Of a stretch of DNA of 64,000 bases, positions 4,496-49,574 are shown piece by piece. Position 1 is the first letter of the stretch, and each line of letters begins with the position of its first letter. The translations under genes were made by a program, and so were the position numbers. Source of the stretch: Candidatus Doudnabacteria bacterium (GTDB lineage Bacteria > Patescibacteriota > Doudnabacteria > UBA920); contig CAWINB010000001.1 of the NCBI GenBank assembly GCA_963837465.1, forward strand, positions 565,646 to 629,645, in the 5' to 3' direction. The notes under the pieces are model-generated. The model was not told the origin of the DNA. It worked only from the letters and a program-made list of their open reading frames with translations, and did not search any database.

Positions 4496-5587
4496 TTATT
4501 TCCCCGACTTAGTTCTATTATCTTGTTTGCATAACATCTGACAATTTTTTGAAACTGTTTTTCCACCCTCGTGCCAAGGTTTTATATGGTCAGCTTCCAT
4601 TTCGGAAATATCAAATTCTTTTTTACAAAATCGGCAAAAACCATTCTGTCGTTCATACGCCTCGCGCTTCATTTTGTCAGTAAACGCGCGGATAGAAAGA
4701 TAGTTTTCCTGCCTGGTTAAAACATACGGATAAATGCCAGACTTTTTGGTCACGTCTTCGTCTTGCATTAATTCTTTGACTTCGTTTTCCAGTTTTTTGG
4801 AATTAAGCTTTACGCCTTTAAATTCGTTATACAGTTCTCCCCACTGCACATCGCCCATCTCTTTGCGATAATTAGGAAAAGTTGCGCGCGCCCACTCAAT
4901 CACCATTTGAAAATATTGCCATAGTTGGTCGGCATTTTTGTCGTGCTGATGTTTGGCCATGTAACCCTCTATTTTGCCACCATTAATCCAAGAAAGCACA
5001 GTCTCTAAATAGTCCTGCCTGATGGGTGATCCATTCATTAACTTCCCTCCGTCGTTTGCCAAAAGATAGGCCACGCAATTTGTTTTGCTAAATTTTAACT
5101 TCGCATCAGAAAGCCACGGACCAGTATAAACTGCATTGCGTATCTCCTGCTGGGTAAGTTTTTCCCCCGAAATATTTATTATGGTAAACCAGTCAATCCG
5201 TTCCTTGTCCGTGCCCTCGCAAAAATAAATCATTAGCTCATAATCCAAAATCTGATTCTTTTCTTCATCGGTTAGGTTGTGAAAGTAAAGCTCGTTGAGT
5301 GAAAAATCGCCGTGTACATATTGCCCAATGCTGATAGTGCGCTGCTGCCCATCAAGGACCTCATAGTTGTCGGCGTCGATTTTCATCCAATACATCACAT
5401 TCAACGGAAAACCCTTTTTAATTGTCTCAATTACCGCGTCGCGCTGCTTGCCGCTATAAACAAATTCGCGCTGGTATTTTGGACGGATATCAAGTTTGCC
5501 ATTGTAAGCCACTACGCCTTCTTCCGAGCTGTCTTTATAGCCGGTAGCGATTTTTCGAATTGTAATGCGATGTAATTCTATTTTCAT
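4496..5587 (-). CDS. DUF262 (ParB-like nuclease) plus C-terminal HNH endonuclease; GmrSD-like type IV restriction-type protein
   Basis: DGQQRTISIG motif of DUF262; C-terminal HIKPWHEGG...CQMLCKQDNRTK HNH motif. Confidence 0.8.
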   Translation of the reverse strand: MKIELHRITIRKIATGYKDSSEEGVVAYNGKLDIRPKYQREFVYSGKQRDAVIETIKKGFPLNVMYWMKIDADNYEVLDGQQRTISIGQYVHGDFSLNELYFHNLTDEEKNQILDYELMIYFCEGTDKERIDWFTIINISGEKLTQQEIRNAVYTGPWLSDAKLKFSKTNCVAYLLANDGGKLMNGSPIRQDYLETVLSWINGGKIEGYMAKHQHDKNADQLWQYFQMVIEWARATFPNYRKEMGDVQWGELYNEFKGVKLNSKKLENEVKELMQDEDVTKKSGIYPYVLTRQENYLSIRAFTDKMKREAYERQNGFCRFCKKEFDISEMEADHIKPWHEGGKTVSKNCQMLCKQDNRTKSGK

Positions 5588-8305: not shown

Positions 8306-8712
8306 TGGCTCGGGAGCTGGGATTCGAACCCAGGACCCATCGGTTACACTTAACCCTAATATTTCTACTAGGCGTGGACTATATCATCATCCCCGATGGA
8401 GGGACGCGAGGCGCTTGGGTCGATTTTATCAACCTACTCCCATAAAGGGATAGTCTCTGAACCTTCAATGGCTTTCGCCAAAGTTTGGCTGCTGATTGCC
8501 TTGTGGTATTTATATACCAGTTAGGTTTCCAGTCCGCCTTCGTCTGCCTGTAGCAGATTATAGCGGATCCGTGCTATAAAAACAAATTATAGTTACGGGC
8601 AATTCACCTCGTTTTTCAATCTCAATTACTTGAGAAAGCTGCTAATTTTCAACTTATTTTGAGACAAGTTGACGGTCTACAGCCGATTGCTCTACCGCTG
8701 AGCTACTCCCGA
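8306..8712 (-). tRNA. tRNA-Asn(GUU) interrupted by a group I intron
   Basis: Exons 8679-8712 (TCGGGAG TA GCTC AGCGGTA GAGC A ATCGG CTGT) and 8306-8346 (TAA CCGAT GGGTC CTGGG TTCGAAT CCCAG CTCCCGA G CCA) join to a canonical 76-nt cloverleaf, anticodon GTT, discriminator G. Confidence 0.7.
8347..8678 (-). ncRNA. group I intron in tRNA anticodon loop (between positions 35 and 36)
   Basis: Conserved R element GTTCAGAGACTA (8448-8463 rc) and S element GATGATATAGTCC (8373-8390 rc); internal guide TTAGCAGC pairs with ligated junction GCTGT/TAA with G.U at splice site; ends in G. Confidence 0.7.
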
Positions 8713-20704: not shown

Positions 20705-22464
20705 CTAAAGCAGCGCCTCAAGTTGCATTTTCTCGGCGGAAATAATAGCGAATTTTTGGTTTAGCTCGTGGATTTTTTCTTTATTTTGCGCGATCTCGGC
20801 CATTTTTATTTCCGACTGCAAATTCTGCTGCTGTTTTTTTATGGATACCGTCCTTAAAAGCGCGAAGGCCTTGAACAATTCCCGCAAAAGCGGGATTTGA
20901 TTGCCCCCCAATTCATCTAACTGGGATTCTACCATAAATTGGGCCTCCTTGGCAATGGCTGACTGGCTGAACATATCCCCGTCCGGATTGCCGGAACCAA
21001 GCCGCGTTACCATTTGCCCAATCTCCATAGTTTCAAAATCCTCGGGCTCAAGCTTGCCCAAAACTTCCCGCCTAAAATCCTCAAAAACCAACAGGCCGCC
21101 CAGGACTTCTTTTTCCAGTAAAAGATTACCATTATTGGCTCTGGATATTACCGAAGCGGCCGCGGTGTTTTGGGGCTTGATTTGCCGGCGCAGGGTAGCT
21201 TCGGAAATTAAAAATTTCGTGGCAATTTTATGGATATAGTGATCCTGCTCTAAAGGATCGGAAACAAAAACCAAAAAAGGCACCACTTGCTCGCCCAGAT
21301 AAAGTTTCTGCTCCACCGATCCGGCCGGGAAATTTAATTCCGCGGAATTGATATAATAATCCAGAAACCAGACGGCCTCACTCACGGCTTTTTGCCACAG
21401 TCCCGGACTTTTTTTTATAATATCGTCCGGGTCTAATTTATCTTCCGAACTTGCGGCCAAAACAATCAGCTTAAGCCTGAAACCCATCTTAAGAGCCGTT
21501 TCCCCGGCCCGCCTGGCCGCGGCTTGACCGGCCGCGTCGCTGTCAAAGCAAAATTTTAAATTCTTGGTCAGGCGGCCAAGCTGCTGCAGCTGTTGCTCGG
21601 TCAGGGCCGTACCGCTGGAAGCCACCACATTATTAAAACCGGCCTGGTGGGCTGAAACGCAATCCATTTGGCCCTCTACCATTACGGCTTCGTCGCCTTT
21701 ACGGATGCCGTCCTTGGCGAAATTCAGACCGAATAAAATTTTGCTTTTGTTGTAGATAACTGTTTCGGGGGAGTTGACGTACTTGGCCGATTTTCCGTCA
21801 TCGTTTAATATTCTGGCTGAAAACCCCACGACTTCGCCGAAATAATTATAAACCGGAAAAGTTACGCGGCCCCGGAACCTGTCGTACATTTGGCCGCGTT
21901 CGTTTTTGGCGCTGACCCCGGCTTTGACCAAATCCGCGGGCGCGACTTTTTTTGGGCCAGGGCTTTTTCCAAAGCATGGTAATCATCCGGCGCGAATCCG
22001 ATTTGCCATTTGGCAATAGTTGCTTCATTTAGACCGCGGTGTTTTAAATATTCCAGCGCGGCTTTGCCGCGGCCGTCTTTAACCAAAATCTGGTGGTAGT
22101 AGCGGGCCGCGAAATTATTAATCCGTAAAAACAGGTCTTTTTCGTCGGAAGATATTTTAGCTCCCGTAGCGCTGCCGTAAGCCGGCAATGTCACACCGGC
22201 TTTGTCAGCCAAAATTTTCAGCGCGTCCTTAAAATCCAGGTTTTCATACTTAATGACAAAACCAAAAACATCTCCGCCTTCGCCGCAGCCAAAGCAGTGC
22301 CAAATTTGTTTTTGCGGCGATATCTGCAAAGAAGCGGTTTTCTCGCCGTGAAACGGGCACAGCGCCTTAAAATTGGCGCCGGCTTTTTTTATGGGAATAT
22401 AGCCGGCAATAACATCCGCAATGTTCAACCTATCTTTAATTTCCTGCGTAATTTGGTCAGCCAT
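20705..22464 (-). CDS. dnaG: DNA primase, reading frame interrupted (zinc-finger ORF 21862..22464 and TOPRIM ORF 20705..21931 overlap in different frames)
   Basis: CPFHGEKTASLQ...CFGCGEGGD zinc ribbon; RFRGRVTFPV and EGQMD TOPRIM motifs; frames switch near T7 run at 21945-21960. Confidence 0.8.
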
Positions 22465-30084: not shown

Positions 30085-30921
30085 TTACTTGTTTATTTCT
30101 TTCATCGCCTGTTTATAAGCCGCGCTGTTGCTAATATCCAGCCACAAGCCTTGGTATGGATAGCCAAACAATCGGCCCTCTTCGGCCAGGCGGGGGAAAA
30201 TATCACTTTCCAGTTTATTTGCCTTGGGGCTTACAAAACTAAAAAACTCGGGCTCAATTACGTAAATGCCGGCGTTAATCAGGCGGGAAAAAGTTTTGGG
30301 ATTTTGGGGTTTTTCTTCAAAGGCCACAATGCGGTTACCCTGAAGTTTGGCCACGCCCCACATGGAAACCGTATCAACCGAGGCTAAAGCCATGGTGCAG
30401 GCAGCCGCTTTTTGCGAGCGGTGAAATTCCACAAAATCTCCATAGTCGATGTCGGAAAGCACATCACCATAAATAAGCAAAAAGCTATGCCGGAAATATT
30501 CCTTAACCTGCAAAACCGGCTGGGCGTTGCCCTGGTTGGTTTTGGACTGATGGATGTAAGTTATGCTCATACCCATTTGTCCGCCGTCACCGAAATATTC
30601 TTCTATAATATTTCCGCCCTTGCCGAGCGAAATACAAACGTCGGTTAACTTGGCGGCTTTAAGCCTCTGCAAAGTCTGTTCCAAAAGCGGCTTGCCGGCA
30701 ATTTTAACCATAGCCTTGGGCAAAGCTTTTTTCTCGCTGTCAAAATACACGGGCTCCCCACCCGCCAAAATTAAAACCTTAACCGCCTTAAGCCCCAACG
30801 ACCGCGACAAAAAATATTCTATGGCGTGACTCCTGTTCCTCAACCTATCGCCATCAATCTCCCCATCCAAAGCTTTTACAAGATCACTCCTTAATGTAAT
30901 TGTAAGTCGTTCGCGGTTCAT
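30085..30921 (-). CDS. sugar-phosphate nucleotidyltransferase with N-terminal ribbon-helix-helix-like extension
   Basis: LILAGGEPVYFDSEKKALPKAMVKIAGKPLL NTP-transferase motif; first about 45 aa (LTITLRSDLVKALD) resemble CopG/RHH fold. Confidence 0.7.
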   Translation of the reverse strand: MNRERLTITLRSDLVKALDGEIDGDRLRNRSHAIEYFLSRSLGLKAVKVLILAGGEPVYFDSEKKALPKAMVKIAGKPLLEQTLQRLKAAKLTDVCISLGKGGNIIEEYFGDGGQMGMSITYIHQSKTNQGNAQPVLQVKEYFRHSFLLIYGDVLSDIDYGDFVEFHRSQKAAACTMALASVDTVSMWGVAKLQGNRIVAFEEKPQNPKTFSRLINAGIYVIEPEFFSFVSPKANKLESDIFPRLAEEGRLFGYPYQGLWLDISNSAAYKQAMKEINK

Positions 30922-31025
30922 AAGACTACAGAATTACTAACAATACTAATCTACAGAAAACTACAGAACCTGTTCAACCTATTAGTTTCTGTAGGCTTCT
31001 GTAGTGCAATATTGTTCCATTTCTG
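30913..31025. repeat. direct repeat L (ctacagaa x3 then ttctgtag x3)
   Basis: about 80 percent identical to 32783-32870 in the same orientation. Confidence 0.55.
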
Positions 31026-31146
31026 TAGTATGATAATATCATACACTTCAAAAATTTCAAAATTTTAAAAACTGGTGGGCGGAGACAAACCAGATGGATT
31101 TTCAAAATTATCCACTGTCTGTCGCCGCCCATCGCGTGCAAGAGAA

Positions 31147-32250
31147 CTAACCTGCTGTCAAAACCTCAGTAAGTTGGCTGCAGGCGGTGCGTGTTTCCGC
31201 TTCCGAAACACGCAAGCACCAACGGATATGTTGTCCGCAACCCCCATACAGCAAGTCATCACGGAGGATGATGCCACATTTGTAAAGTTCGGCAACGAGA
31301 CGAACCGAGCCGCCATAGTAGTTGTCGACCGGAAACCACCCAAACATCCCACCTTCCGGCATAAGCGCGTTTTTCAGGCCAGCTTCACGCACAAGATTTG
31401 TAGTCAACTCAGCCTGAATGCGATAGTGTTTACGTACACGAATAACATCAGCCCGGCACTCACGCAGCGCTGTCGCTGTTGCCAACTGACCTGGAATGGA
31501 GCCACCTTCAGAATAAATAGACTTAGCCCTGGTGAGAATAGCAATCCGGTCTTGACGCCCCACTGCGAAGCCAACTTTCCAGCTCGCAGCGGAGAACATC
31601 TTTGAAGCAGTCCCAAACCACAATGCAACATCCAGTGCTTTCGGTACTGCAAGAACGCATGGGACATAGCCTTGTTCGTAGTCAAGCGCGCCGTATGCAT
31701 AGTCATCCAAAATCAGAAACCCATACTTGTGAGCAAGCGCAACCAGCCGCTCATAGACGGCCTTCTGACAGCTTATGCCGGTTGGGTTGCTCACAAAGCA
31801 AGTGATTACCGCCTTGGGCTTCCAACCAGAACGGAGCCGTTCCTCAATACCATCGACGTAAGCCGAAGCACTTGGCATCGGCACGAACACAGGCTGCAGT
31901 AGAAACTTCACCGCTGCGTCCCTGTGACCGTTATAAAAACGAGATGGCATAATAACCTCATCGCCGGGATGGAACAGCGCTTCAAAAGCACTGACCAATA
32001 AGAGCCTCGATCCTTCGGCAAAGGTTACATTCCCACAAGATTCCGGGGTTCCGTTATAGTCTTTGCCCGGGTTGAGACCCTCAACACCGAAAACATCTTG
32101 TTGCCAGAAACAAACTGCTTCTCGTGCTTCTTGTACACCGTTTGACGTTGCGTAACCTAACCCTCCAGGGCGCAGCATTTCTTGGTAAAATCTTTCTATT
32201 GCTCTTTGGGGTGCAGCTTGCACCGGAGAGCCCAGTCCTAAGTTGATCAA
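31147..32250 (-). CDS. PLP-dependent aminotransferase class I/II, GC-rich (probably horizontally acquired)
   Basis: SKMFSAASWKVGF lysine motif; GC content far above flanks. Confidence 0.8.
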   Translation of the reverse strand: MINLGLGSPVQAAPQRAIERFYQEMLRPGGLGYATSNGVQEAREAVCFWQQDVFGVEGLNPGKDYNGTPESCGNVTFAEGSRLLLVSAFEALFHPGDEVIMPSRFYNGHRDAAVKFLLQPVFVPMPSASAYVDGIEERLRSGWKPKAVITCFVSNPTGISCQKAVYERLVALAHKYGFLILDDYAYGALDYEQGYVPCVLAVPKALDVALWFGTASKMFSAASWKVGFAVGRQDRIAILTRAKSIYSEGGSIPGQLATATALRECRADVIRVRKHYRIQAELTTNLVREAGLKNALMPEGGMFGWFPVDNYYGGSVRLVAELYKCGIILRDDLLYGGCGQHIRWCLRVSEAETRTACSQLTEVLTAG

Positions 32251-32782
32251 ATTTTTCTCCCTTGTACAATATATATATACACCCTCCTCTTGGATTATGG
32301 GTGTTCTGTAACTGGTTGCTCAAAAGCATTGCGATTATTCAGCGACAGATAAAACTAACTTTTTTAAAGTTAGTTTTATCTGGTGCCGATGGGTATTTAT
32401 TTTTTCTAGTGGCAAGGGCGGGGGCGAAAACTTTATGTTTCCGCCTCCCGCCTCGCCACCAGGAATAGTGTAAATAAAAAGCAGGTGGCGGAGTCCCAAG
32501 TTTTTAGGCTTTGGGCCCCACATCTGCTTTTATTTTTGTGTTTGTTTTTCGTCATTGCCAGTAGCACCCGACTTGTCCGCCGTAGCTTTAGCAAAGGTGG
32601 AAGCAATCTGATCGATTTTTAAGATTGCTTCGTCGGCTGCACTCCTCGCAATGACACGTATTTCTTTCTTTTCATATATTATCATATACTATCATACAAA
32701 TCATTGTCAAACAACAATATCCCTTTTAAATAAAAGGGGTGTCAGTATTATATCCACACACTACAATAGGGAACTGGAATGC

Positions 32783-32870
32783 CTACAGAACCTAAAAACC
32801 ATAGCAACCTATTAAATAATAGCTTCTGTAGTTTTCTGTAGTGTAATTTGTTTCTATTTCTGTAGTATTG
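32783..32870. repeat. direct repeat R (ctacagaa then ttctgtag x3)
   Basis: homologous to 30950-31022; overlaps stop of 32854..33594. Confidence 0.55.
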
Positions 32871-33594
32871 TTTCCGCCAGCTTTAAATCTTCTTTACTGT
32901 TTACACCTATCACCTCCTTGGGATCAATATGGGTAGATGAGATTTTTTCTCCCCGCGCAATGGCAATTTCCACTATATCGGTTAAGTAGTATTCGGCCTG
33001 CTCGTTTTTGTTTTTTATTTTTTCCGCTTGCTGCCACAGCCATGCCGCGTTAAACATATAAATGCCGGGGTTGAGTTCTTTTATTTTCTTTTGGCCGGCG
33101 CTGGCGTCTTTGTATTCCACAATTTTGACCAGTTTTTTATTGGCATCGCGAATTATCCTGCCGTAGTATTCCAAAGGCTTGTTTAGGCCTTTAAAATTAT
33201 CAACGACTGTTGTAAACATGCTTATGTTGGACTGCTTTTTATGATGCAGCTCCATAAGCTTTTTTAAGCCTTCCGCTTTTATAAATGGATGGTCCCCATA
33301 AAGCACCAAAATATTTTTACCAATAGCTTTGTGTTTGGCGGCCAGCAAAGCGTGGGCGGTGCCCAACTGCTTGTCCTGGATGGCGTAAATATAATTATTG
33401 CCAAGCACCGCTTTAACTTTGTCCGCCATATAACCGACAACAATAATCGGCTTGGCCAGTTGGTTTATTTTTTCCACTTCTTCCAGCAAATACAAAATCA
33501 GCGGTTTGTTGTTCAACATTACCAAAACCTTGGGCACACTGCCGCCCATCCTTGTACCTTTGCCTGCCGCCAGTATGACTATCTGATTTCTCAT
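32854..33594 (-). CDS. nucleotidyltransferase (GlmU N-terminal domain-like)
   Basis: LAAGKGTRM motif. Confidence 0.8.
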   Translation of the reverse strand: MRNQIVILAAGKGTRMGGSVPKVLVMLNNKPLILYLLEEVEKINQLAKPIIVVGYMADKVKAVLGNNYIYAIQDKQLGTAHALLAAKHKAIGKNILVLYGDHPFIKAEGLKKLMELHHKKQSNISMFTTVVDNFKGLNKPLEYYGRIIRDANKKLVKIVEYKDASAGQKKIKELNPGIYMFNAAWLWQQAEKIKNKNEQAEYYLTDIVEIAIARGEKISSTHIDPKEVIGVNSKEDLKLAETILQK

Positions 33595-44091: not shown

Positions 44092-44508
44092 TTTTCCGCC
44101 TTAGCTAAAGCTATGGCGGATGAAAAAGAATTAAAATTTTCGGTTGATTAGTACTGCTCGGCTGAACACATTACTGTGCTTACACCTGCAGCCTATAGAT
44201 AGCGTTTAGTTATTAGCGTTTAGCGTCCAGTATTGCTACTATTCGCTATTCACTAACCGCTATTCACTATTTTGTTACGGGGTAGTCTTCCCCGAACCTT
44301 TTGTCACCGAAGTGACAACGAAACCTAGTTTTGTAGACGGCTTCACGCTTATATGCCTTCAGCGCTTATCCTAACTAGACCTAGCTACCCCGCCATGCCC
44401 TGGACAGGACAACGGGTACACCAGAGGTCTATGCTTTTCGGTCCTCTCGTACTAAAAAAGCGACTACTCAAGTTTCGCACACCCACAGCAGATAAGGACC
44501 AACACTTT

Positions 44509-44830
44509 GTTACAAAAGTAACAAAAATTCCAAATTTCAAATTAAAAATTTCAAACTGGAAAACACTTTGCTACTTTGGCATAAATATTTCTATTATGCT
44601 CTGCATGTCGCCATGCAGTTCGGACTATATCTTCAATGCATTATCCCGGCGGTTCATCCGGTATCGTAAAAATTTAAGATTGATAATTACAAAGTCTGGC
44701 GTGTAGTCTCTACGGGTTCCCTGGGATTGTTATGTATTCCCAAAGCCTTCCCTCGGTATTGTCTCACGTTTTCTACCATGAGAGTTTCACCGATTTAGCC
44801 AAATTTACAGACAGCATGGTTATTCCTTTT
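44509..44830 (-). ncRNA. group I intron 3 at the L2593-equivalent site (after GTGAGACAGT), no ORF
   Basis: R element GTAGAGACTACAC and S element GAAGATATAGTCCGAAC; exon resumes ...GGTCCTTATCTGC. Confidence 0.65.
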
Positions 44831-44908
44831 ACTGTCTCACGACGTTTTGAACCCAGCTCGCGTACCACTTTAATATGCGAACAGCATAACCCTTGGGAGC
44901 TTCTACAC

Positions 44909-44947
<39 letters not shown>

Positions 44948-45491
44948 TCTCGTCGCTGTGGACGCTTGGAGAGGATCAGCCTGTTATCCCTAGAGTAACT
45001 TTTATCCGTTGGGCTTTGCGTCTTCCACTCGAACGCATCGGATCACTAACTTCCACTTTCGTGCCTGCGCGGGTCGCTGCCCTTGCAGTCAAGCAGGCTT
45101 ATGCGTTTGCACTACCGGCATGATTTCCATCCATACCTAGCCTACCTTAATAAACGCCTCCGTTACCATTTAGGAGGCAACCGCCCCAGTTAAACTACCC
45201 ACGAGCCACTGTCCCAAAGCAGGTTAAACTTTGGTTAGCAATTTCATCTTTACAGGGTGGTATTTCACCTGTTGCCTCCATGCCAGCTGGCGCCGGCACT
45301 TCAAAGGCTCCCACCTAGGCTAAACAATAAAAATAAAATTGCAATGACACGCTATAGTAAAGCTTCATAGGGTCTTTCCGTCTTGCTGCGGGTAGACGGC
45401 ATCTTTACCGCCATTGTAAATTCATCGGAATGTTCGTTAAGACAGTTCTCTACTCGTTATGCCATTCGTGCGGGTCGCAACTTACGCGACA

Positions 45492-45812
45492 CAAAATTGT
45501 TACTTTGCAAAACCACATCGGTTACTGATTGAGCTCTGTGGCGCGCTAATCTTTCGATTAGCATCTGCATGTCGCCATGCAGTTCAGACTATATCATCTC
45601 GCCTTGTTGGCGAGTTCCGCGTATAGTCGTTGAGGATCCGTTAAAAAAATTCAACGTTTCCTGCGGATTGTCCGGACTCCAACTCGTTTTGTTGGCATCA
45701 CTGAAGCATTTTTACTTATAAATAAGTAGCTTCAGATACTTCCGGGGTTCCCCGCATACAGCGGAATTTTCCATTCTTTAATAAATATTAAAGAATGGTC
45801 CCAGTCGTGTTT
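45492..45812 (-). ncRNA. group I intron 2 in domain IV (after GGTAGCGAAATTCCT), no ORF
   Basis: Q element AATCCGCAGG, S element GATGATATAGTCTGAAC; P7-P9 block CTGCATGGCGACATGCAG shared with intron 3. Confidence 0.65.
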
Positions 45813-45838
45813 AGGAATTTCGCTACCATAGGACAGTT

Positions 45839-46574
45839 CATTTATGTTAGCTTTATGTTTCCATAAAGATCAGACTATATCATTCCACCAGATTGATGGA
45901 TTCGGCGTTTAGTCGTTGAGGGTTTTTACTAAATGATTCTTTAAAATTTGTTAAATTATGTTTTCGTGTTCTTCCTTTTCCTTCATTTAAGCCTTCACGA
46001 AGTTTTACTATTTCTAGCAAGCCTTCGGAAGTTAAGTGTTGGTTTGCAAAAACTAGTTTTGCAATTTTAGAAAATAACGAATAGTTTCTTTTTTTAATTG
46101 CGGACAAGAAACCGAACCGGTCAAAGAAAGGGATTATTCTTTCTTTGAGTGCTGTATGATTTTGAACAATATATTGATGTACTCCATCTTTTCTATGGTC
46201 AATGCGACCACAGCCTAAATGATGCTTCAATAATGCAAGTACGGTAATATCTTTTTGAGAGACATTAAACGTTAGAATAACTTGCCATAATACTTTACTG
46301 TCAGTTCGTTTACGAAGGGAAACGTTAAAGCTTCCTTCTCCGTCTACAAAACCTGCAAAGTAATTTCCAAATTCAACAGGAATTTGTTTTAACCAATTTT
46401 GATCCATAAAGTTTCCTTTTGAATCGTTTAGTAAATCTTCCCTGCGGATTGACTGTATCTTGTAAATTTTTACTGTCATATTTCAGACGAGTATTACAAG
46501 TTTTAAGCACGTCGTTGTCCACGCGTGCACAGTTATTCCCGCAAATAGCCAAATTTTATAACTACAACATGTTC
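45839..46574 (-). mobile_element. group I intron 1 at the L1917-equivalent site (GTAACTAT|AACTGTCC) carrying a homing endonuclease gene
   Basis: Q element AATCCGCAGG at 46441-46455 rc, S-like GGAATGATATAGTCTGATC near 3' end; separated from intron 2 by a 26-nt exon (45813-45838). Confidence 0.7.
45880..46479 (-). CDS. LAGLIDADG homing endonuclease (intron-encoded)
   Basis: FAGFVDGEGSF motif; ORF lies entirely within intron 1. Confidence 0.85.
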   Translation of the reverse strand: MTVKIYKIQSIRREDLLNDSKGNFMDQNWLKQIPVEFGNYFAGFVDGEGSFNVSLRKRTDSKVLWQVILTFNVSQKDITVLALLKHHLGCGRIDHRKDGVHQYIVQNHTALKERIIPFFDRFGFLSAIKKRNYSLFSKIAKLVFANQHLTSEGLLEIVKLREGLNEGKGRTRKHNLTNFKESFSKNPQRLNAESINLVE

Positions 46575-46758
46575 ATAGTTACTGCCGGCGTTCATCAGGG
46601 CTTGGCCGAGCGGCTTGCGCCACCCGGTTTAACCTTCTGACACTGGCCAGGCATCAGCCCGTATACATCAGCTTGCGCTTTAGCACGGACCTAAGTTTTT
46701 GGTAAACAGTCGGAGGAGATCTTTCGCTGCGGGCCTAATTTATATGCTGGGTAATGAA

Positions 46759-47227
46759 GATATTTGAGACAGCAAATATCAAACTGTTTAAAAAATCAGG
46801 GTTAAGATTTTCCAAAGGAGGGTGTGTGGTACTCATCGCGGGTTCGAGCCGCAACAATTCAATCAAACGTGAGGTTAATCCGTCCGATTTATAACACACT
46901 TATCCCTCCTTTGGTACGGAGTTGACGGGTCCTAGGACGCCTAGTCGAGAAGGCAACAATGGTCTGTTGCCGACAAGACTATTTTTTCATCTACTCCGAA
47001 CTGGTGCATCGGATGGGAGTTGAACCCATACTGACACGGCTTAAGAGACCGCCGCTCTGCCCTTGAGCTACCGATGCGATTGTTTAAATCAAACAATCAA
47101 AACTTTCACCATAAAGAGTGATTACATTCTCACTTTGCCTCGCGGCTTATCTCTTTACTCAGAACGGGTATGCCTTTAACGGGCCGTATCTTTTCTAGGA
47201 GTCTTTATGGCAAACTCTAAAATTTTT
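46759..47227 (-). other. 469-nt insertion in 23S helix 63 region flanked by an 18-bp perfect inverted repeat
   Basis: arms tatatgctgggtaatgaa (46741-46758) and ttcattacccagcatata (47228-47245); flanking sequence matches E. coli 23S about 1700 and 1770. Confidence 0.5.
47002..47077 (-). tRNA. tRNA-Lys(CUU)-like cloverleaf embedded in the 23S helix-63 insertion
   Basis: GCATCGG TA GCTC AAGGGCA GAGC G GCGGT CTCTTAA GCCGT GTCAGT ATGGG TTCAACT CCCAT CCGATGC A CCA; perfect 7-bp acceptor and 5-bp T stems; anticodon stem has two G.U pairs. Confidence 0.5.
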
Positions 47228-47823
47228 TTCATTACCCAGCATATAAAAAGGTCAAGGTATATACCGAAGGTACACCTGCTTTTTTGCCGAGTTCCTTAAC
47301 GAACATTGTTCCGGACGCCTTGGGATTCTCTCCCCATCCACCTGTGTCGGTTTACGGTACGGACACTTTATAACGTGACTTCGACGCTTTTCTTGACACC
47401 TTGATTCACACTAATTCCCGTTGCCAGGTTTCTTCTTATTTTCGAGATTGTAACCGGACTTTACATCTCTCGCGAGGCAGTAAAGCCCGAAAAAGAAATT
47501 CCGGATTTGCCTGGAATTTCACCCTACGAATAAGACAACGCAAATAGTCAGATTACGCCAGTGTTATCATGATGCGTCCCGCCTAAGATAATTATAAAGT
47601 GGTTACGGAATATCAACCGTATTTTCCATCGGATGGACCCCTTGGGGCCCACTCTTAGGATCGACTAACCCAGGGACGACGATCGTTGCCCTGGAAACCT
47701 TGGATATTCGGCGAAGAGGATTCTCACCTCTATATATATTACTTATTCCAACATTCTTACTTGTACACTGTCCACGGCCGCTTACGCATACCGCTTCAAC
47801 CTGTGTACAACACTCCTCTACCA

Positions 47824-47938
47824 CTTGTGCGAAGCACAAGCATCCTTGATCCTTTATCATTTATCCTTGACCAACTGCGGAGCTGCAGCGGTAAAAGATA
47901 AAGGATTAAAGATAAAAGATACTTGTGCTTCGCACAAG
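47824..47938 (-). other. intervening sequence (IVS) in 23S helix 45
   Basis: 17-bp perfect stem cttgtgcgaagcacaag / cttgtgcttcgcacaag enclosing AT-rich hairpin at the canonical IVS site. Confidence 0.6.
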
Positions 47939-48020
47939 TCCACGTCTTCGGCACCTAGCTTAGCCCCTATATATTGTCGGCGCAGGATCGCTTGACCAGT
48001 GAGCTGTTACGCTTTCTTTA

Positions 48021-48057
<37 letters not shown>

Positions 48058-48829
48058 GGGCAATCCCACATCCTTTACACTATAGCTAGGATTTGGGGGC
48101 CTTAGACGGTGGTGTGGATTCTTCTCCATTTGTCTGGTGGAGCTTAGCCCCCACAGACTGACTGCCAGATTCTTGACCTTAAGAATTCAGAGTTTGGTTG
48201 GAGCCTACCGCTTGCGCAGCAGGTTTCCATTCAGTGCTTTACCTCTTAAGGGAACATCTGACGCTAGCCCTAAAGCTATTTCGAGGAGAACCAGCTATCA
48301 CCCGGTTCGATTGGAATTTCTCCCCTACGCACAGCTCATCCCCTATTTTTGCAGCAATAGTGGGTCCGGACCTCCCGTTACTTTTACATAACGTTCATCC
48401 TGGCCATGCGTAGCTCACGCGGGTTTCGGGTCTAACTCATGCGACATATAGGAATAGAATTATGAATATGGAATTATGAATTAGGAATACTGCGAATGCA
48501 GTCCCATAATTCTTAACTCATACTTCATAATTCTCATCCTATTACGGACTATTCATCCTCGCTTTCACTGCACTTTCGTCTTTGATAAGACTTAAGTAAG
48601 CCGCACAAGATTAACTCGTTGGATCATTCTTCAATAGGCACGCGGTTACTCACTGCTTCGCAGATGAGAATTTCAAATTAAAAATTTCAAATGTCAAATG
48701 AACTTGCAAGCTGCAGCCCTTTTGAAATTTGTAATTTGATATTTGACATTCCTAACTGCGAAGCAGTCAGAGCTTCCACTCCTTGTAAGTATACGGTTTC
48801 AGATACTATTTCATTCCCCTTCCGGGGTG

Positions 48830-48870
<41 letters not shown>

Positions 48871-49025
48871 ATATGAGTATTTAGCCTTGGATCTTAGTCG
48901 ACCCGATTTCCGACCAGATTTCTCGTGTCTGGTCGTACTCAAGTTTAAAGTTCAGGAAATTGCATGGTTTTTCGCGATACGGGACTATCACCCTCTTTGG
49001 TCCGCCGTTCCAGGCGTGTTCTGCT

Positions 49026-49235
49026 AAACAGCAAACATAATTCCCAGCCCCTTTACAGAGGGGCAATGACTTCCACTTATAACGCCATCTTAGCAACGAC
49101 TGTAATCTTTAATTCTCCGTCTTGCGACTTTGAAAACACTAAAATGGTTTGGGCTAATTATTTAGAGATTAGCGTTTAGCGAATTAGCGTTTAGTAACTA
49201 ACCGCTATTCACTATCCACTAATCACTAATAATAT
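49026..49235 (-). other. about 210-nt expansion/IVS in 23S helix 9 region
   Basis: about 60 nt in E. coli; contains tagcgtttagcg / taaccgctattcactat short repeats also present in 3'-terminal expansion 44190-44275. Confidence 0.5.
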
Positions 49236-49574
49236 ACTTCCGCGTTCGCTCGCCACTACTAACGGAATCTCTTTCGTACTCGCGTACGAATTGATTTATT
49301 TTCCACGTGCTACTGAGATGTTTCACTTCGCACGGTTCCCGCATATACCGCCCCACGGCGGCACAGCACGCGCTCTTCCAGCGCGTGGGTTTCCCCATTC
49401 GGACACCCCCGGATCAAAGCTTGTTTGCCAGCTCCCCGAGGCTTTTCGTCAGGCTACAACGTCCTTCATCGGCTCATATTACCTAGGCATCCACCGTATA
49501 CCCTTATCTATTTTAATTCTATCCGCGAATTGTCATCTGTCTTAAAAAAACAGACGCGCGATCCGCGGTTTATT

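Follow-up and report, generated by a model that had tools for sequence, protein, structure and literature searches.

Among the short repeats dispersed through bacterial chromosomes, the GTAG-tagged repetitive extragenic palindromic (REP) sequences come closest to the elements treated here. These repeats expose GTAG at the outward ends of their dimers, accommodate G.T pairs in their stems, adjoin or overlap stop codons and also occur inside polA and uvr genes (Di Nocera et al. 2013, PMC3733652). The bacterial candidate phyla radiation (CPR) lies outside the phyla covered by that survey (PMC3733652). CPR bacteria are ultra-small, with tiny, tightly packed genomes whose cis-regulatory DNA has hardly been characterised. 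The present analysis concerns two arrays of a repeated 8-bp unit, blocks A and B, located in a 64-kb stretch of Candidatus Doudnabacteria bacterium (assembly GCA_963837465.1, contig CAWINB010000001.1, positions 565,646–629,645, forward strand), referred to throughout as the window. With high confidence, both blocks are assigned to a palindromic repeat family that is lineage-specific, present in multiple copies and a variant of the GTAG-tagged REP/REPIN-like repeats. An initial annotation of the same DNA had read them as possible flanks of an inserted aminotransferase gene. Loci from the DNA of relatives that were compared with the window are designated by L-numbers (L002, L039 etc.).

Two palindromic arrays at one locus

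The unit CTACAGAA and its inverted counterpart TTCTGTAG occur ten times as exact matches in the 64 kb, and all ten copies fall within the two blocks; shuffled windows contain 0.96 copies on average and four at most. One-mismatch copies outside the blocks show no excess over chance in the window, and a relaxed cluster scan of the same stretch detected no further arrays. The perception that two homologous blocks lie in the same orientation about 1.75 kb apart is borne out, the gap between them being 1754 bp:

30926–31028, no strand assigned: block A, a complete palindromic array with three forward and three reverse units
32760–32865, no strand assigned: block B, a partly decayed array with three intact CTACAGAA and one intact TTCTGTAG in the sense direction, the other units being decayed

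The start-to-start spacings of the block A units are 25, 10, 26, 10 and 24, and the symmetry centre is position 30977. All genes of the locus are on the minus strand: read in this sense direction, block A presents three CTACAGAA units, an 18-nt loop and three TTCTGTAG units, and its end is followed after 4 nt by an ATG at 30921. This ATG opens a nucleotidyltransferase gene whose product has a candidate ribbon-helix-helix (RHH) N-terminus, hereafter RHH-NT. As the predicted transcription start lies in the first unit, block A would constitute the entire 105-nt 5′ leader of the RHH-NT mRNA, and as RNA it folds into a single hairpin of −41.3 kcal/mol (z = −6.0). In block B the forward copies are an intact one at 32783 and a decayed one, CTACAATA, at 32761, and the reverse copies are at 32824, 32834 and 32858; the outermost 8-mer lies inside the final codons (ILQK and stop) of a GlmU-like gene and overlaps the stop codon. 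In a pairwise alignment the right halves of the two blocks are 83% identical across 52 nt, all nine mismatches falling outside the 8-mers, and the two loops have the 10-mer TAATAGGTTG in common.

A dispersed family in one clade

The family was searched for with the pattern TTCTGTAG-NN-TTCTGTAG-N8-30-TTCTGTAG in contigs representing one genome per species, where about 0.1 matches are expected by chance. This triple-unit pattern returned 38 matches, 35 of them in metagenome-assembled genomes (MAGs) labelled Doudnabacteria, Saccharibacteria or Patescibacteria, with up to 12 strict matches per genome. FtsZ identities of 59–94% among four compared array-bearing MAGs indicate that these four form one clade and that the taxon labels are unreliable. 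The outliers L022 (Elusimicrobia, beside a response regulator), L028 and L038 were discarded as unrelated tandem repeats that include the 8-mer by chance. A phage origin was likewise rejected, as the viral contigs of IMG/VR contain no arrays. In these genomes arrays stand beside ftsZ, nusG/rplK, secA, pilB and other genes.

The architecture CTACAGAA-N~17-CTACAGAA-NN-CTACAGAA, usually accompanied by its mirror image, recurs at no fewer than 35 other places in Doudnabacteria-type CPR genomes. Followed outward from the gene, a half-array consists of an outer CTACAGAA, often with an immediate degenerate copy, a spacer that puts the second unit at 19–34 nt (mode 25) and two units exactly 10 bp apart. 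A full element is composed of two inverted halves and displays CTAC...GTAG outward in all dimers; CTAC/GTAG, the invariant core of the unit and the outer end of every dimer, persists even where copies have decayed. Loop lengths begin at 9 nt and exceed 160 nt, and a terminator or a promoter may be enclosed. Seventeen full elements, from 14 independent loci, were recognised, and many arrays are single arms. Contiguous 8-bp tandems of CTACAGAA occur in L018, L005, L030 and L042. In L018 a run of six contiguous units (4500–4547) directly follows the argS stop codon, which suggests that the outer unit can expand like a microsatellite. Searches of Rfam 15 with the window and its relatives, using gathering and E-value thresholds, assigned neither the arrays nor the aminotransferase leader to a family and returned only sub-threshold miRNA-like hairpins; a search of the literature on the motif and on CPR repeats found nothing specific to these arrays.

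Placement at gene boundaries

The arrays always fall in DNA predicted to be transcribed, where they separate a stop codon from its terminator or a promoter from an ATG. Their position relative to the codons is regular: in about 17 cases the outer unit lies 0–2 nt past a stop codon or overlaps it, and in about 12 it lies exactly 4 nt before an ATG, with one case at 3 nt. Start-adjacent genes include pilB, secA, pilC, rplK, RHH-NT and genes for a glycosyltransferase, a UPF0047 protein, a class II aminoacyl-tRNA synthetase and an ABC-F ATPase; stop-adjacent genes include rpsG, argS, ftsZ, nusG, cobA and genes for ribonucleotide reductase and methyltransferases. The possibility that the arrays mark a regulon was rejected because these neighbours are unrelated housekeeping genes. 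The small unknown proteins encoded beside arrays were found to be devoid of DNA-binding features.

Half-arrays are also found in frame within genes, namely uvrC, polA, fmt and a membrane-protein gene (L019 2606–2647, L031 809–847, L030 6183–6224 and L037 1399–1442), where they encode peptides of the TTELQK/TTENYR type. The array in fmt sits in a loop of variable length, and fmt homologues of other genomes have the related peptides TAENYR and STDNYG in that loop.

A promoter within the array was considered and dismissed: TAGATT/TAGAAT after the inner pair resembles a −10 box, but there is no consistent −35 element and the promoter scan makes no call. Nor is there any need for the arrays to replace Shine-Dalgarno sequences, since a recognisable one precedes only 8 of the 52 long open reading frames (ORFs) of the window (~15%). 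In several window genes a −10-like box immediately precedes the ATG, and this arrangement, combined with the scarcity of Shine-Dalgarno sequences, suggests widespread leaderless or Shine-Dalgarno-independent initiation.

Retention and insertion history

Selection was assessed at loci that had been retrieved via the RHH-NT protein, so that the motif itself was not used (L043, L046, L047 and L055), together with the window and L039. The junction at the 3′ end of the GlmU-like gene, occupied by block B in the window, carries orthologous arrays in L039, L043, L046, L047 and L055, with 3–5 exact units in each locus and unalignable spacers. Four-fold degenerate sites of the flanking genes are 32–48% identical (window, L039, L043, L047, L055), which corresponds to a probability of ~0.003 or less for the neutral survival of an 8-mer. 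At the level of sequence, this comparison shows retention of the 8-mer units by selection after insertion. The retained units and arms differ by lineage: block B of the window has preserved the stop-side arm, and L055 the opposite one. The keeping of different arms in different lineages points to the 8-mer, rather than the hairpin, as the selected entity.

The start of RHH-NT preserves a record of insertion. The −10 box abuts the ATG in L047, L049 and L002, which indicates a leaderless mRNA; an array, block A or its orthologue, separates box and ATG in L039 and L046 as it does in the window. At the block A spot L043, the closest relative, carries another palindrome, and other relatives have a GTCATTGCGAGG-type element. 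Hairpin-forming insertions are evidently tolerated between the RHH-NT −10 box and ATG. At orthologous sites in L003, L044 and L049 arrays are absent. No consistent target-site duplication was found; left flanks vary, with 0–3 nt to TA or stop, and a TA target duplication was rejected on account of this inconsistency. The elements would have entered as DNA insertions where a compact genome tolerates them, namely directly behind stop codons, in the interval from a promoter or an upstream stop to an ATG, and in frame within protein loops.

The host locus and its variable slot

In the direction of transcription the locus comprises the GlmU-like gene, block B, a terminator-like hairpin, a promoter, a leader, the aminotransferase gene, a second promoter, block A and RHH-NT. 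The features other than the blocks are as follows:

32854–33594, minus strand: GlmU-like nucleotidyltransferase gene, with NTP_transf_3 and NTP_transferase matches; its last codons enter block B
32721–32738, minus strand: terminator-like hairpin that follows the GlmU-like gene, immediately downstream of block B
32681–32710, minus strand: aminotransferase promoter, TTGACA-18 nt-TATGAT, matching 11 of 12 consensus positions and conserved in relatives
32550–32657, no strand assigned: palindrome GTGTCATTGCGAGGAG...GGCAATGACG of ~108 bp, resembling a MITE (an inverted-repeat transposable element of miniature size); an insertion in the leader, absent from the otherwise collinear leader of L043
32399–32535, minus strand: hairpins 1 and 2 of the leader, shared by the upstream regions of different slot genes, with no Rfam match
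32346–32382, no strand assigned: perfect palindrome with 17-bp arms and a TTT loop, the third hairpin of the aminotransferase leader
31147–32250, minus strand: class I/II aminotransferase gene AT1, 367 aa (PF00155, E = 4e-28), with a TTG start after AGGGAG
31028–31060, minus strand: RHH-NT promoter, TTGAAA-16 nt-TATTAT with an upstream TG; the −10 region lies within the palindrome GTATGATAATATCATAC (31028–31044)
30085–30921, minus strand: RHH-NT gene, encoding a sugar-1-phosphate nucleotidyltransferase (NTP_transferase, E = 1.7e-30) with a ~45-aa N-terminal extension

The initial annotation had correctly named the flanking genes as sugar-nucleotide transferases, both being of the NTP_transferase family, and the gene between the blocks as a class I/II aminotransferase (PF00155). 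Both promoters are separate elements outside the arrays.

The RHH-NT protein matches UGPase, GMPP and RmlA structures of the PDB over residues 45–275. Its N-terminus gives RHH_1 with an E-value of 0.009, below the curated cut-off, and the NikR N-terminus with 0.25; the ~45-aa extension is conserved in more than 80 CPR loci, and a single-sequence AlphaFold2 model attains a pLDDT of 33. The palindrome GTATGATAATATCATAC is unique within the window. In 841 kb of compared DNA, GTATGATAnTATCATAC has 28 matches, nearly all at RHH-NT or slot-gene promoters; it overlaps the −10 region of RHH-NT and, in relatives, that of the slot gene too. Sites are located as follows:

Window: 31028–31044
L002: 315 and 2026
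L003: 2603 and 5159
L039: 2101 and 3742
L046: 957 and 2600
L055: 3038 and 5967

These positions make GTATGATAnTATCATAC a candidate auto-operator to which the RHH-like domain of RHH-NT would bind, and in that case RHH-NT would be a possible ‘trigger enzyme’.

Synteny is conserved in the order CofD, GNAT, GlmU-like, slot, RHH-NT and GAPDH. The content of the slot is variable and encompasses at least three unrelated lineages of class I/II aminotransferases across the relatives:

Window, L002, L003 and L004: AT1, 65–68% identical to that of the window
L043: a relative of AT1, 39% identical
L039 and L046: AT2, 22% identical to AT1
L049: a relative of AT2, 41% identical to AT2
L044: a third aminotransferase type
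L055: a glycoside hydrolase and an unknown ORF
L047: slot empty, a single array remaining

A word-indexed search of 5.8 billion proteins retrieved only eight homologues of AT1 above 48% identity, the next matches being at 27%, so that AT1-type proteins are nearly restricted to this clade. In every relative with a filled slot, the gene directly upstream of RHH-NT is GC-rich compared with its neighbours; in L002 its GC content at third codon positions (GC3) is 0.68 against 0.19–0.40. The DNA between the blocks had been called strikingly GC-rich, and a mild version of this claim stands: the GC content of AT1 is 0.515 against 0.447 ± 0.046 for the 52 window genes, with the excess at codon positions 1 and 2 only, and its GC3 of 0.489 coincides with the gene mean of 0.486 (rank 27 of 52). 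AT1 genes have a GC3 of 0.63–0.68 where their neighbours have 0.19–0.48, yet in the window the value equals the genome mean.

Different slot genes share a terminator, a promoter and a first leader hairpin, all situated between block B and the variable gene; this places the exchange inside the span of the arrays, and the blocks are not the ends of the exchanged unit. Two distinct indels separate the window from L047: the aminotransferase module, which lies upstream of the −10 box, and block A, which lies between box and ATG, an arrangement that does not correspond to one insertion with a duplicated target. No integrase or transposase genes are encoded in the 13–43 kb portion of the window, and there is no recombinase gene within ~15 kb of the locus.

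The aminotransferase leader extends over ~430 nt and contains the 108-bp insertion and three hairpins. The perfect palindrome with 17-bp arms exists as described, its ends at 32346 and 32382 replacing the earlier 32350–32386; L043 and L003 have a hairpin of different sequence at this position. Elements related to the GTGTCATTGCGAGGAG...GGCAATGACG palindrome are present in the RHH-NT leaders of L004, L044, L066 and L119, and a 51-aa ORF at this palindrome (32530–32685) is probably spurious. The multi-hairpin structure of the leader, with one hairpin beside the ribosome-binding site (window 32260–32680, minus strand), has comparable counterparts in L002 (300–655), L003 (2560–3000), L004 (300–605) and L043 (2760–3085), with conserved hairpin positions but not sequences. 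The aminotransferase leader may be an unrecognised cis-regulatory RNA.

Possible modes of action and competing explanations

The explanation on which the balance of probability modestly settles is that of a dispersed, REP-like family, maintained by selection, which acts through transcript hairpins and a unit-specific factor and for which the aminotransferase is not cargo. The pairing of RNA hairpin and unit-specific factor is the most likely mechanism, held with moderate-to-low confidence. The arrays would act within the transcript as long hairpins abutting stop and start codons, where their role would be to shield the ends of mRNAs and to gate termination or initiation in the genes on either side. 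A protein, be it a mobilising enzyme or a host factor, would recognise the repeated GTAG-containing unit, and the aminotransferase would stand beside the arrays. At the host locus, block A would have been inserted ahead of RHH-NT, whose −10 box and ATG it parts and whose relatives are leaderless, and block B lies across the GlmU-like stop codon ahead of the terminator. When the 17 full elements are oriented by their flanking genes, the non-Watson-Crick transition pairs within units comprise eight G.U and no A.C on the sense strand, and L043 offers one compensatory CTACAGAT/ATCTGTAG pair. In Escherichia coli, terminating ribosomes stall at REPs that lie no more than ~15 nt from a stop codon, and the upstream gene is expressed at a lower level.

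Several observations weigh against the transcript-hairpin explanation. The unit is an 8-mer without a stem-loop of its own, unlike the canonical REP, and its invariance leaves almost no covariation, which renders RNAalifold uninformative. The hairpin as such is not conserved: block B and L055 keep opposite arms, a pattern that fits a factor binding duplex DNA better. The eight-to-none G.U bias could partly reflect strand-biased mutation or a single-stranded DNA hairpin on the lagging-strand template. Finally, tblastn with sequences of the REP-associated tyrosine transposase (RAYT, of the Y1/HUH type) and IS608 TnpA, a weak test, found no RAYT or transposase gene in the array-bearing loci (841 kb of genome fragments).

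One alternative is that the arrays are homotypic operators for a protein that binds duplex DNA, for instance the candidate RHH domain of RHH-NT, and that at gene boundaries the bound arrays repress or block transcription. Tandem 7–8-bp boxes are the binding sites of MetJ and omega-type RHH proteins, and the conservation of an 8-mer of which either arm may persist, the strict 10-bp phase of the inner pair, the contiguous 8-bp tandems of L018, L005, L030 and L042 and the location of the most complete array at the transcription start of RHH-NT (window, L039, L046) would all suit such a protein. Other data are difficult to reconcile with operators. The neighbours form no coherent regulon, stop-to-terminator and intragenic positions are odd for operators, and the exact 4-nt distance from the ATG is unpredicted by a model restricted to DNA. 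The predicted base-contacting residues R5, T7 and T9 of the RHH-like strand are invariant also in relatives whose RHH-NT locus is array-free, and it is GTATGATAnTATCATAC, not the array, that tracks the RHH-NT gene at its own and the slot-gene promoters. Furthermore, the RHH-NT family is far wider than the arrays: it occurs in more than 480 CPR loci, whereas arrays are present only at some loci of a subclade whose RHH-NT is at least 67% identical to that of the window, a subclade that has array-free members in L044 and L049. The operator explanation is rated as unlikely. A more ambitious reading, in which CTACAGAA arrays form a gene-boundary punctuation system specific to this Shine-Dalgarno-poor CPR clade, their 8-mers, set flush behind stop codons and exactly 4 nt ahead of start codons, being read by a sequence-specific factor, is rated as quite improbable. 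Were it true, the punctuation factor would open and close a stop-to-start hairpin and so link termination, the protection of mRNA ends and (re)initiation across many housekeeping genes, and the arrays would be domesticated repeats forming a global layer of post-transcriptional control. It is distinctly improbable that the arrays are selfish, MITE-like relics without present function, whose units stay intact through homogenisation (slippage or quasipalindrome correction) or re-insertion. Variable presence at orthologous sites (block A missing in L043, losses in L003, L044 and L049), the decay of distal arms, the in-frame copies inside genes and the prospect that the L043 compensatory pair stems from one templated event are compatible with relics; on the other side, the 8-mer consensus persists at orthologous junctions of the motif-independent loci despite saturated synonymous divergence, spacers are homogenised neither within nor between arrays, and no target-site duplication can be defined.

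The least probable proposal, with very little in its favour overall, is that of the initial annotation: an aminotransferase cassette inserted by site-specific recombination, with the blocks as att-like or arm-type sites or as a tandemly duplicated promoter block followed by gene capture. Two homologous blocks in direct orientation do flank the gene, slot content varies among relatives, in which slot genes are GC-rich, and L047 supplies the anticipated relative with one array and no aminotransferase. What remains of the proposal is a replaceable, compositionally odd slot gene; the repeats cannot be credited with its insertion. They belong to a family dispersed over at least 35 other gene boundaries, at non-variable housekeeping genes, and the exchange boundaries lie within the span of the blocks but away from them, past the conserved terminator, promoter and leader. 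The same type of aminotransferase occupies the same site without arrays in L003 and L004. The promoters are external to the arrays, two independent indels separate the window from L047, and no recombinase gene lies within ~15 kb. The annotation had itself named two observations that would speak against it, a repeat-free copy of the gene in relatives and uniform codon usage; both have been made, GC3 being uniform in the window genome.

Other features of the window

The 23S rRNA gene (44127–49518) is 5.4 kb long and contains two group I introns; a tRNA-Lys(CTT) gene at 47002–47077, called by ARAGORN and Rfam, falls within its span. A third group I intron is located at 8355–8661, and the window contains no 16S gene. 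dnaG (20705–22464) is divided into overlapping ORFs for the zinc-ribbon (22464–21862) and the catalytic/Toprim portion (21931–20705), a division that could be due to a frameshift, an assembly error or a genuine split.

Significance

The array family has been kept through deep divergence and is placed with single-nucleotide regularity at the starts and stops of core genes such as ftsZ, secA, rplK, pilB and those for aminoacyl-tRNA synthetases. It provides a testable handle on how gene expression starts and ends in genomes where only ~15% of genes have a Shine-Dalgarno sequence, and through it the phenomenon of GTAG-tagged repeats, with the copies inside uvrC and polA, reaches another major lineage and takes on a new architecture. 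A caution for genome scans follows as well: where direct repeats surround a compositionally odd gene, they may belong to a dispersed family and not be insertion scars. The slot is of separate interest, as GC-rich aminotransferases have repeatedly replaced one another there with the promoter and leader conserved.

Comparison with known systems

Several classes of prokaryotic repeats share features with the arrays. Pneumococcal BOX elements and the MITEs Correia and RUP are, like the arrays, modular, transcribed, intergenic palindromes of 100–150 bp, and they are able to alter the expression of neighbouring genes. In BOX elements and these MITEs the terminal inverted repeats are defined and TA is duplicated at the target; the arrays, in contrast, have inverted arms but no consistent duplication of fixed length at the target site. 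The attC sites of integrons are also imperfect palindromes (60–140 bp) with conserved ends and a variable centre that begin at or over a stop codon with the next start close by, and the window element similarly adjoins an exchanged gene. Unlike attC, the arrays have no RYYYAAC/GTTRRRY core, no integrase and no cassette array; most copies are at non-variable housekeeping genes and the exchange boundaries are elsewhere. TIGR (tigRNA) arrays were rejected on the basis of published descriptions, as their ~36-nt units, box C/D motifs, two variable spacers and tas gene do not fit, and no Nop-domain proteins were identified among the proteins scanned near the locus.

The palindromic elements of Rickettsia, cited in PMC3733652, offer another parallel: ~100-bp palindromes in a reduced genome, intergenic as well as in frame within essential genes, and conserved at orthologous sites between species. 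They display neither an iterated 8-mer nor a rule of flush placement at starts and stops, and have no sequence similarity to the arrays.

The most extensive likeness is to the GTAG-tagged REP, REPIN and BIME sequences (PMC3733652). In both cases the elements are short, multi-copy and lineage-specific, with an invariant outer GTAG/CTAC; inverted dimers can fold into a larger hairpin with G.T pairs; copies lie between co-directional or convergent genes and at stop codons, and others inside polA, uvr and tRNA-related genes. A REP unit is an imperfect palindrome of 20–40 bp with its own stem-loop, whereas the arrays iterate an 8-mer three to four times per arm, in direct repeat, with complementarity only between opposite arms. 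Their arms are AT-rich instead of GC-rich, copies number in the tens instead of hundreds, many are fixed at 4 nt from start codons, and a RAYT gene was not seen in what was a weak search. The array family is therefore filed as a REP-like variant, not as a member of the REP family proper.

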